Program-made: the position numbers
NCBI RefSeq assembly: GCF_044324875.1
Contig: NZ_CP172185.1
Source: Escherichia coli
GTDB taxonomy: Bacteria > Pseudomonadota > Gammaproteobacteria > Enterobacterales > Enterobacteriaceae
DNA length: 64,000 nt
Direction: 5' to 3' (one strand)
In this document: positions 25,901 through 28,900 of the stretch, piece after piece
How the letters are laid out: every line of letters starts with the position of its first letter
Position numbering within the stretch: position 1 is the first letter of the stretch

Positions 25901-28900
25901 AAAAAGTTAATGCGTCGCGTAGTTCTTTAACACACGCATAGTTTTCTGCTTTCTCTGGGTCGCCGGTACGGTGTTCAGCTTCTTGTCTGCACCATTTGAT
26001 GACTTTCTCTGCGGCTGCGTGGAGACGCTGACGTTGCCAGTCGTATGTGTCGACCAGCCCATATGCGTGATTCTTTGCTTTGCTTAATTCAGCGACGAGG
26101 CATTCGGAATCAATCAAATTATTTTCCGCAGCGGACAGCGCTTGTTTAAGTCGCTCGATTTCTTGAGCCATGTAGTAGCCGGTTTTACTCCAGGTATCGA
26201 CATCATCGTCACTCATATCCAGTTCCATCGACGCCATCAGAACGGCGTCGTGATAGTTCTGGCTACCGCAGGTGATTGCAACGACGTAGGAGTCACTATT
26301 TTCTCGTTTATGGATAAGTACAACTGGGTTTTTGATCTTGCTCATTCCGCACCTCAGTAATTCATTAAAAATTTATATTCAATCAGCGCACCGAAAACGA
26401 CGGACGCCAGCAGCAGACCAAACAGCATGGACAGGAGGAATGACTTCATCGCTTTGCCTCCCGCTGTACGATTTTGTAGGCGCGCAGGATGTCGCGTGTT
26501 TTTCCTGACAACGATGACTTAACCCAGAAAAAGCCGCTGCGGTTTTCATAGATCCCCTGTACATTAAACAGCACCGCATCAACAACGCGGTTATGCTTTT
26601 GCAATGTCAGGCAGGAACTGGTGATCACGATGTTCGCTACGGCGCCATAGTCCTTGTATTGGATTTTCATTTACATGTTCCCCATAACGGTATCGCTCAT
26701 GTCGTTAACCATGCTCTGCCAGATTTCTTTGCCGCTTTGCGTCAGCTCGTTTCCACGAACGCATTTGCTTAACAGCTGAATACCAACGGCTTCCCATTGG
26801 GGGTAATTTTCTTTGATAGCCTTCAGAGCATAACCATCGATTAAATCCCTGATACCTTTAACCCCACCGATGATGTTTACTCGTATGGATTGCCCATTGA
26901 CATTAATCATGAAATGATCTCCGTTGGTGGCGGATATGTGGTTGTGCAGTGCAGCCGCATACTGATTTGCCAGCGCATTGAGGCGGAAATTTTGTGTAAT
27001 GAGTGGCATTATTTACCCTCCCAACCAATCACCTGAAACAGCCCCATTTTCGGGTGATACCAGCGGGTACCGCGTGGCTCTGCCTCTGACATCATCTGAT
27101 GAAATGCTTTCATGAACGGCTCAAGCTCCACGATAGCCCGGCGAGAAAGAAGACCATCTGGCGTCATAAATTCGTGCGTATCGGTTGGGATGCTGTAGGC
27201 ATTGACCAGATTGCGGCACTTGGCATCAGTCATTCCGCTTTTGGCGACCACCTGGCGATAACCGACATATCCGGCGCGCATATTTCCGCGTTTGATGTTC
27301 TCCACAGCTTTGGTGACCGTTTCGATCTTCTCTTCAACATGACTCAGGCGCTTCTGCTGGCGAACGGCATCGGCGGCCATTGCAGCGATCATCTCCATTT
27401 CCGTCAGCGGCGCGTGAGTTCGGAAATAGCTGTTAACCAGTTCGCGCTGAACCTGCCATGCAAGAGTATCGTTAAAAGGCTTCGTCAACATCAGGTAACC
27501 AGACTCGAAAAGAATGATCCCTTTGGCAGTTCGCGCGGCAAAGGCATCAGAAAGTGACTCCGTACGTATTACGTCCGCAGTCATTTCAAGAAAATCCACC
27601 CCTTCGATAAAGTGAGAACGGTTGCGGTTAAACGCAGCACGGGCGGTACCTTCCGGGCGCTGGTGGACGTCATCAATCATTGCAAATGTCACAACACGCT
27701 GACCGCGATATTCGATTACCGGAAACTGTTTGTTGTTGATGGTTACAGTATTCATTTTTATCTCCAGACAGCCCGGCGTGTAATACCGGGCATATGTATT
27801 ACTTAACCTGAATAAATGGTGTGTTGGCACCGCTGGTCATGTATTGCGGCAGTGTACCGTTCCACTTGTTGATGGCTTCCAGCTCCATAACGTTTGGGTT
27901 CTGGCGCAGAGCTTCACCGCGTAAACGAATAGCATCGGCTTCGGCCTGGGCTTTTGTGCGAATCGCATCTGCCTGTCCGGCAGCTTCCGCGCGCAACATG
28001 TTGGCTTCCGCTTCGCGCTGTTTTACTTCCTGCTCGCGTTGCAGGGTTTTCTGGTTGGCCGTGACTTTGGCATTAATGCTGTCGATAACAGTAGGCGGGT
28101 ACTCCGGCTTACCCACATATGAGAGGCTCATTACCTGAATACCGATGGGCGTCATTTCTTCCTGAATGTCTTTAAGAGCTGCATCCAGCAGCTCAGACTT
28201 GCCGCCGTCGATAAATTTGTCGGTGGTCATTTTGCTGGCCAGTCGGTTGAGTGCGTCGGCTATCTTCTGGCGCAGGTCGGTGTCGGTAATGTCGTCCACG
28301 CCTTTGCGGTAGGTCTGAAAGACTGTGGTAACTTTGGATGGATCAACTTTGTAGGCCACGCCGATGTGATAGCCGATGGTTGTACCGTCACTCATCTGGA
28401 AACTGAATGGATCATCGTAGGTCTTCATCTGCTTAAAGGTCGGGAAGATGTAAACCTCAGTGTTCCATCCCGTCCAGTAGCGCCCAACACCGACCACTTC
28501 ACCGACGCCTTTATCGTCGCCCAGTTTGTTTACTTTGATGCCCACATTACCAGGCTCAACGCGATCGCAACCGACAAGGCCAATGGTCGGCAGAACAATG
28601 GCTAAAGCAAAAAGTAATTTTTTCATCTTTTATCCTTAGAAAAAGAAAGACCCTTATAAATGGCATAAATGCAGGGCGGGGTCAGACACGCCAGAGCAAA
28701 GCCAGAAATCACTGCTATCGTATCCTTCATGGATATAAGGAACGGAACGAGTAATCCGTAAATGCATGCGATAATTGCCAGTAAAATTACTATTGTGAAA
28801 TACAGTCTCATTGGTCTGTGGTATCCCGATATTTTTAACCGACTGACAGCGCAATAAAGAGAATAATGATTTCTGTTAGTGTCAGCACTGTGGCAAGGAT

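Follow-up and report, generated by a model that had tools for sequence, protein, structure and literature searches.

A conserved 31-codon gene of an Escherichia coli prophage probably encodes a membrane microprotein and behaves as an accessory cassette

Small single-pass membrane regulators can be very short, as in the case of MgtS (31 amino acids), KdpF (29), PmrR (29), AcrZ (49), and MgrB (47). The early operons of phages, in turn, encode small host-takeover proteins, among them lambda Kil, Rac KilR, DicB, and SPP1 gp56. DicB is covered in PMC6832061, and the small Caulobacter proteins SidA and DidA are covered in PMC4211646. HK97 gp15 (YebO-like), a small phage inner-membrane protein, blocks genome entry of other phages (PMC3594210), as does the phage inner-membrane protein SieA of P22 (PMC10883804). 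A survey of Enterobacteriaceae, "Entero67K," described 67,297 clusters of intergenic open reading frames (ORFs) of 15–70 codons under purifying selection, most of which are hydrophobic and potentially transmembrane (Fesenko et al, 2024; PMC11188072). Here, a stretch of 64,000 nucleotides from Escherichia coli (contig NZ_CP172185.1 of assembly GCF_044324875.1; in the following, the window) was analyzed, in which a prophage lies beside mlrA. On its minus strand, the prophage carries an ORF of 31 codons between a gene for a 74-amino-acid protein (p74) and an Ea22-like gene (Table 1). Judged from the pattern of substitutions among its homologues, this ORF codes for a protein and is under purifying selection, being constrained about as strongly as its annotated neighbor p74; its product, as predicted from hydropathy and structure modeling, is probably a single-pass inner-membrane microprotein; and its occurrence is that of a dispensable accessory cassette, which assorts independently of every neighbor among related temperate phages of Enterobacteriaceae.

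The peptide is of the same size class as MgtS, KdpF, PmrR, AcrZ, MgrB, SidA, and DidA, and shares with them a single hydrophobic helix flanked by a short polar stretch. Regulators of the MgtS type act by binding a larger membrane protein, and by analogy this is the favored model of how the peptide may work; however, no homology to them was found, and the peptide is phage-borne instead of belonging to the chromosomal core. Its likeness to HK97 gp15, P22 SieA, and T4 Imm is that of small phage inner-membrane proteins (the membrane location of the peptide being predicted) and of optional accessory genes of temperate phages, but the peptide is much shorter and has no sequence similarity to them; similarity to the gp15/YebO family was found neither in Pfam, NCBIfam, and PHROGs nor in the phmmer scan. 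The moron gp15 has a promoter of its own and is made from the prophage, whereas no promoter-like site adjoins the peptide ORF, whose operon looks repressor-controlled. With Kil, KilR, DicB, and gp56, the gene has in common that it is small, non-essential, and probably part of an early accessory region; those proteins, made on induction, interfere with envelope or division proteins of the host, yet Kil, KilR, and DicB are not of the transmembrane type, and none of the four has sequence in common with this peptide. The type I toxins (Hok, Ldr, Ibs, TisB, and ShoB) are likewise small hydrophobic helical peptides, but the peptide is without antisense RNA, dedicated promoter, or family match and is probably translationally coupled inside an operon. 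The ORF fits the description of Entero67K exactly (the comparison being one of descriptions only), and in its kind it is common, uncharacterized small membrane proteins being a very large class. What is specific here is the family itself, which is uncharacterized and restricted to one clade of temperate phages of enterobacteria; in contrast to the survey, one family is worked out, including its phage context and its pattern of presence and absence.

As 136 ORFs of at least 25 amino acids overlap the surrounding 9 kb, a 31-codon ORF alone means little. It is the comparison of homologues, given below, that sets this one apart from chance. It exactly fills a space of ∼100 nucleotides that separates neighboring genes in a tightly packed operon. 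It is preceded by a GGGAGG Shine–Dalgarno site at a spacing of 7 nucleotides (CAAAGCG) and begins within an ATGA overlap with the stop codon of p74. No other ATG, GTG, or TTG was found in frame upstream of the peptide ATG, which makes this ATG the sole possible start. The first-pass annotation, made from the window sequence, had proposed a small hydrophobic peptide gene with this ORF, this ribosome-binding site, and this overlap with a 74-amino-acid gene, and every one of these sequence details was found as described.

Homologues were collected in two ways. The first sample consisted of the contigs of five phmmer relatives and of a scan of IMG/VR for DNA matching a degenerate pattern that encodes F-G-x-L-(I/V)-E-Y-K-F-L; the scan gave 71 matches, 69 of them true homologues, which together with the other loci amounted to 50 distinct DNA versions. 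To remove the ascertainment bias of a search with a peptide pattern, the second, unbiased sample was gathered via the neighbor only: alignment of p74 homologues yielded 273 IMG/VR loci, the best 80 of which were kept. In all of the ∼50 distinct versions of the first sample, the frame was open and the ATG was retained, and in-frame stop codons were absent from the 45 distinct sequences of the pattern scan as well as from 27 of the p74-selected sample. The homologues are 30–34 amino acids long, save for one read-through of 45. Entropy summed over codons 2–19 was 9.7, 4.1, and 12.0 bits at the first, second, and third codon position, respectively, which is the order (second < first < third) of a coding sequence. 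The ratio of nonsynonymous to synonymous substitution (dN/dS, after Nei and Gojobori) was 0.24 in the peptide frame of the first sample, restricted to the part not constrained by the search pattern, versus 0.44 to 3.8 in the other five frames. In the unbiased sample, the ratio over codons 2–28 was 0.20, again the lowest of the six frames (the other five, 0.46–3.1). For p74, it was 0.15 in the same p74-selected loci and 0.15–0.17 over two comparisons. Residues E24, Y25, K26, and F27 were unchanged in the correctly aligned sequences of the unbiased sample, whereas their codons varied synonymously (GAA/GAG, 10/16; TAT/TAC, 16/10; AAA/AAG, 21/5). Over all intact, correctly aligned homologues, E-Y-K-F was constant in every one but locus L178 (ESKF). 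Where p74 is only 43–70% identical to the copy in the window, the peptide is 72–93% identical, that is, it is more conserved than p74. Lack of conservation at the protein level in related prophages had been named beforehand as what would speak against the gene; with dN/dS at 0.20–0.24, the sequence is conserved there. Sampling a locus via a neighboring gene and then assessing codon-level selection in all six frames thus provides a route for validating such genes from sequence only.

The translation signals are retained along with the reading frame. At most homologous loci, also where another gene lies upstream, the ATG is preceded by GGGAGG or a purine-rich GAAGGA; the site is weak in a few (e.g., L003 and phage LMessi). 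Of the 61 carrier loci with p74 upstream, nearly all keep the 4-nucleotide ATGA overlap (two have a 1-nucleotide insertion), and it is also present behind a ParE-like gene in the checked loci lacking p74 and behind a 145-amino-acid gene (L003). Start/stop overlap and Shine–Dalgarno site are thus maintained behind three different upstream genes. The overlap probably serves translational coupling, in which a ribosome ending the upstream gene would start on the peptide directly.

The predicted product is strongly hydrophobic, the mean Kyte–Doolittle hydropathy over the 19 residues 5–23 being 2.54, and AlphaFold2, run on the alignment of the peptide family, modeled one continuous helix from residue 2 to residue 30 (mean predicted local distance difference test score, 93.6). 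Both results bear out the earlier proposal of a hydrophobic membrane peptide, in that it is helical and of transmembrane type. In an alignment of 24 sequences, ten positions were invariant (M1, L12, L14, G20, L22, E24, Y25, K26, F27, and L28) and six nearly so (K2, L9, F10, L13, F19, and I23). The tail beyond L28 is variable and, in many homologues, is the translated ribosome-binding site of the downstream gene (GGAGG or GGGAG; ..FGG* or ..FGS*), as in TTC GGA GGT TAA, which reads F-G-G-stop; the functional core therefore corresponds to residues 1–28. According to the positive-inside rule, Lys2 would stay cytoplasmic and E-Y-K-F-L would come to lie at the periplasmic interface.

Four loci depart from the common sequence or arrangement by single changes. 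At L178, the peptide carries Y25S and lacks Lys2; at L121, an 8-nucleotide duplication truncates it after ALIE; at L001, p74 is frameshifted by a single 1-nucleotide event; and at L007, a metagenomic contig, a 1-nucleotide insertion, again a single event, fuses the frames of p74 and the peptide.

Linkage was counted over 79 peptide-carrying loci. A p74 homologue lies immediately upstream in 61 of them, starting 220 nucleotides upstream of the peptide ATG (221 in the two with the insertion), whereas an Ea22-like gene is present in 31, a 28-amino-acid peptide in 18, and the gene for an SPFH protein with its 62-amino-acid partner in two, namely, the window and one genome 99.8% identical to it over a 601-nucleotide query. 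In the 18 loci without p74, as far as checked, the peptide follows a ParE-like gene or the 145-amino-acid gene. Conversely, 35 of the 80 p74 loci lack the peptide, and p74 then couples directly, via the same ATGA overlap, to Ea22-like or other genes. The downstream gene and the type of integrase vary among the peptide loci. Strict co-occurrence of p74 and peptide was thus not observed (exceptions, 35/80 and 18/79), and the two do not form an obligate two-gene module. On this evidence from gene order, the peptide gene is an accessory cassette that phages can do without and that travels independently of each of its neighbors, which suggests that its target is not a neighboring phage gene. The idea of the first-pass annotation that the peptide forms a set of small membrane effectors with the SPFH pair and the 28-amino-acid peptide did not hold, given that these accompany it at only 2 and 18 of the 79 loci, respectively.

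In the window, the cassette lies in what appears, from the arrangement of genes and sites, to be a long operon under repressor control, which extends leftward from a point just beyond the repressor gene as far as the integrase gene. On the minus strand, the genes are in order those for a LexA-family/S24 repressor and a helix-turn-helix protein, several small genes, and those for a 62-amino-acid membrane protein, an SPFH lipoprotein, an ORF6N anti-repressor-like protein, a 112-amino-acid protein, p74, the 31-residue peptide, the Ea22-like protein, a 28-residue hydrophobic ORF, a DUF4222 protein, a 44-amino-acid protein, an excisionase, and the integrase. In the 85-nucleotide gap just downstream of the repressor gene, a 34-bp palindrome overlaps a TTGACA/TAACCT site in which the TTGACA is perfect, and the divergent control region on the upstream side of the repressor gene contains a related half-site of the palindrome. 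Control by the repressor is suggested by the TTGACA promoter and by the palindromic operator, a half-site of which recurs in the control region of the repressor itself; the TTGACA/TAACCT site with the palindrome is probably a PL-like early promoter with the left operator, and the half-site upstream of the repressor gene is probably one right operator. No promoter-like site was found on either strand near the peptide ORF (positions 25500–27200), and no Rfam match at E (expect value) ≤ 1 was obtained across positions 24900–29200. The probable timing of such an early operon would fit a part, during lytic growth, in host takeover or in keeping out superinfecting phages.

The reading preferred here, to which we give an even chance of being correct in full, is that of a membrane microprotein of an early, repressor-controlled operon, carried as an optional cassette, which binds a host inner-membrane protein helix-to-helix. 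Coupled translation from p74, via the ATGA overlap and the strong Shine–Dalgarno site, would yield a microprotein of ∼31 residues, made after induction or infection but not in the quiescent lysogen. It would insert into the inner membrane in the orientation given above and, early in lytic growth, would specifically bind its host partner; blocked DNA entry of other phages, or interference with membrane machinery of the host (the divisome or a transporter, for instance), would be plausible outcomes. Specific binding of a host protein is favored by the preservation of the sequence across phage backgrounds and host genera, with selected residues that include a glycine and a polar/aromatic motif. 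Likewise, the ten invariant and six nearly invariant positions around the helix, G20 and E24-Y25-K26-F27 among them, argue for specific binding and not for generic hydrophobicity. For a phage-encoded product that modulates a host membrane protein, the peptide offers a concrete candidate of very small size.

Several observations weigh against this reading. Conservation is not limited to one face of the helix (moment, 0.18), and a homo-oligomer or pore would fit equally well. The proportion of synonymous sites that differ (pS) is lower in the peptide (0.36–0.39) than in p74 (0.49–0.54), which implies that constraint at the nucleotide level, or recent spread by recombination, may add to the apparent conservation. 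The TTGACA/TAACCT site was not flagged by a consensus promoter scan but assigned from reading the sequence, and in lysogens there may be read-through from the repressor gene. Similarity to a characterized protein was not found in the family searches, which leaves no functional lead from homology, and the sequence of the peptide occurred in no paper of the literature searched. A bolder version of the preferred reading is more doubtful: the peptide would be the founder of an undescribed family of phage microproteins that bind one specific inner-membrane protein of Enterobacteriaceae via the helix and the invariant E-Y-K-F-L clamp and switch this target off in lytic growth. A component of phage DNA entry, a divisome protein, or a transport protein could be the target. 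If true, Shiga toxin 2f (Stx2f)-type and related prophages would carry a natural inhibitor of 31 residues with a defined specificity.

Conservation all around the helix is also what self-association would give, and size, hydrophobicity, and a single helix are typical of type I toxins. Together with the strong ribosome-binding site, this would suit a generic membrane-damaging peptide, toxin- or holin-like, which oligomerizes and dissipates the membrane potential, resulting in host shut-off or abortive infection without any specific target. Such a peptide nevertheless appears unlikely here: neither a promoter-like site (on either strand) nor an antisense RNA family was found nearby, known toxin families (Hok, Ldr, Ibs, TisB, and ShoB) gave no significant match in Pfam, NCBIfam, or PADLOC, the gene lies within what looks like an early accessory operon, and the strictness of E24, Y25, K26, F27, and G20 exceeds what pore-forming hydrophobic toxins usually need.

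The frequent position of a p74 homologue directly upstream, with stop and start overlapping (61/79 loci), and the fusion of both frames into a single ORF by the insertion in L007 could mean that the peptide is the partner or membrane anchor of p74, the two acting as a functional pair. Because they assort independently, with 35 of 80 p74 loci lacking the peptide and 18 of 79 peptide loci lacking p74, this is improbable. Programmed −1 frameshifting from p74 into the peptide at A-AAG was considered as well and rejected, since other loci have GCT-AAG, ATC-ACG, or further sequences in place of this slippery site.

Still less probable is that the ORF acts only in cis, as a coupling bridge or regulatory leader that sets downstream translation and whose product has no function. 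The exact fit of the ORF into the ∼100-nucleotide gap, the overlap of its stop codon with the downstream ribosome-binding site, and the position of the conserved motif near the stop would agree with such a role. However, the downstream gene changes among loci while the peptide sequence stays constant, the distance from motif to stop ranges from 2 to 17 codons, and purifying selection extends over the entire hydrophobic helix; moreover, where the cassette is absent, p74 couples directly by ATGA, so that no bridge is needed. That the ORF is not translated at all, and that the sequence is instead a nucleic-acid element, a recombination junction of phage modules, or the complement of a real antisense gene (the 58-amino-acid ORF of Table 1), is hardly credible: although nucleotide conservation is also good in the central block of the ORF, with pS below that of p74, and although the antisense frame is also stop-free, substitutions concentrate at synonymous sites (dN/dS, 0.20, as opposed to 0.46–0.56 for the antisense and up to 3.1–3.8 for the other frames), start codon and Shine–Dalgarno site are conserved, and neither an Rfam match nor a promoter-like site was found. 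On the same grounds, the antisense ORF was rejected as a candidate gene (0.46–0.56 versus 0.20–0.24 for the peptide over both samples), and so was an internal promoter or RNA element behind the conserved block TTGAATATAAATTTTT, in which, besides, third codon positions vary.

Identical copies of the peptide occur on 854 contigs of a collection of 15 billion proteins, along with seven close variants. A phmmer search against 1.84 billion representative proteins returned five real relatives (30–85 amino acids, 72–87% identity), all of which carry LLLA..VFG.L(I/V)EYKFL, and one spurious repeat protein; a search with a 45-amino-acid relative (P0047) returned only P0047 and was uninformative. With the DNA of the ORF, blastn recovered homologues, whereas tblastn against phage records gave a partial match only, probably because the low-complexity filter masked the hydrophobic helix. 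No significant family match for the peptide was obtained in PHROGs, NCBIfam, PADLOC, Pfam, the PDB sequences, or Rfam, and PADLOC defense models matched neither the peptide nor nine neighboring genes. The only Pfam family with any match was PsbX (PF06596), which was rejected: E was 0.18 for the peptide of the window, only one of 24 family members reached E ≤ 0.001, PDB profile matches had E ∼1, and the hosts of the family are enterobacterial prophages. The best match in NCBIfam, Prli42, had E = 0.27 and 11 bits versus a cut-off of 27.5. Both resemblances are compositional.

Members of the family occur in Escherichia, Citrobacter braakii and another Citrobacter species, Enterobacter asburiae, and two species of Trabulsiella; close relatives of p74 are recorded in Shigella and of the Ea22-like protein in Salmonella. 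Among 5,426 complete E. coli genomes, blastn located the ORF in 18. Two isolated phages, phi467 and LMessi, carry the peptide, so that the family is found in phi467-like temperate phages, including Stx2f-converting phages; papers naming phi467 deal with the genomics of Shiga toxin (Stx2f) phages. Given this occurrence, the function could bear on induction biology or on phage exclusion in such lysogens. Small hydrophobic genes are routinely omitted from genome annotation, and the gene had been suspected to be one that length-thresholded ORF calling misses. This is correct for RefSeq, where all five genomes examined have an unannotated gap of ∼100 nucleotides at the site, but not in general: both GenBank phage records list a hypothetical protein, and nr holds three accessions for the peptide. 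In a genome near-identical to the window (L002; NZ_CP100500.1, 6356..6926; 99.8% identical over the 601-nucleotide query), the 31-residue ORF is unannotated, and so is most of the 209-amino-acid Ea22-like gene, of which only a 159-nucleotide "incomplete" pseudogene fragment is listed; elsewhere, the full 209-amino-acid protein is recorded on hundreds of contigs.

Table 1. Positions of the peptide gene, its signals, and surrounding features in the window.
Feature	Position	Strand	Remarks
Small membrane peptide gene	26354..26449	minus	ATG (26449) + 31 codons MKSFLLSMLFGLLLASVVFGALIEYKFLMNY + TGA
Codons 5–23, hydrophobic core LLSMLFGLLLASVVFGALI	26381..26437	minus	predicted transmembrane helix (hydropathy and AlphaFold2)
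Codons 24–28, juxtamembrane motif E-Y-K-F-L	26366..26380	minus	from homologue alignments
Shine–Dalgarno GGGAGG	26457..26462	minus	inside final codons (R-E-A) of the 74-amino-acid gene
ATGA overlap	26446..26449	minus	peptide ATG 26449..26447 with p74 stop TGA 26448..26446
GAGGTG ribosome-binding site of downstream gene (ATG at 26345)	26350..26355	minus	shares the peptide stop, TGAGGTG
p74, 74-amino-acid gene (phrog_1001)	26446..26670	minus	usual, not obligatory, upstream neighbor
209-amino-acid Ead/Ea22-like gene	25716..26345	minus	downstream, variable neighbor
Probable operon promoter and operator	30912..30964	minus	TTGACA 30964..30959, 17-nucleotide spacer, TAACCT 30941..30936
34-bp palindrome CTCGTAACCAACATTTCGAAATCTAGGTTACGAG	30912..30945		overlaps the TTGACA/TAACCT site
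Related half-site of the palindrome	31696..31718		probably one right operator
LexA-family/S24 repressor gene	30989..31648	minus	
Membrane-protein cluster	27799..28942	minus	
SPFH lipoprotein gene	27799..28626	minus	part of the cluster
35-amino-acid hydrophobic ORF	28835..28942	minus	part of the cluster
28-amino-acid ORF MMNWPEAFTAVGVAIAVAFILYSLFRWG	25633..25719	minus	begins with ATGA overlap on the Ea22-like stop
Antisense 58-amino-acid ORF	26332..26508	plus	stop-free frame
Integrase gene	23655..24941	minus	
Region of yohO and mlrA	22766..23580	minus	

The slot behind p74 can be occupied otherwise. At one locus (L149; IMGVR_UViG_2744054454_000032), it is filled, with the same ATGA overlap, by an unrelated membrane protein of 60 amino acids with two hydrophobic segments, MSPLKRAVFIFVLICAMGLFSALASGVQWGTPVAGIITAFTFFVATLVAGAVYENDMWGE, and the slot may serve as a landing site for cassettes of small membrane proteins in general. 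At L018, L036, L098, L100, and in carriers without p74, a 73-amino-acid gene resembling ParE family toxins (PF24732) directly precedes p74, or the peptide where p74 is missing.

The 28-residue ORF downstream was confined to loci whose Ea22-like gene has at least 90% identity to that of the window, and its sequence is 100% identical in all 18 loci, which leaves no variation from which to assess selection on it. Elsewhere, the same sequence forms the C terminus of longer ORFs, namely, a 30-amino-acid "DUF551 domain-containing protein, partial" of Salmonella and a 45-amino-acid protein of E. coli; it may sometimes be a C-terminal membrane tail and not a separate peptide. The SPFH lipoprotein, the 62-amino-acid membrane protein (phrog_1130), and the 35-amino-acid hydrophobic ORF make up a membrane-protein cluster, which occurs in two of the 79 related loci, looks like a separate insertion into the operon, and matched no PADLOC defense model. 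The SPFH protein shows weak similarity to HflK/HflC, far under the family cut-offs.

Beyond mlrA, on the far side from the prophage, follow yohO, yehW, and yehX; yohO, which adjoins mlrA, is a known gene for a small membrane protein of 35 amino acids. The integrase gene ends ∼75 nucleotides from the mlrA reading frame, and integration of the prophage seems to have taken place at the 5′ end of mlrA (yehV), a known integration site of Shiga toxin prophages. The mlrA frame of the window begins with TTG and is without the usual N-terminal residues; for the near-identical genome L002, RefSeq lists an MlrA of 228 amino acids.

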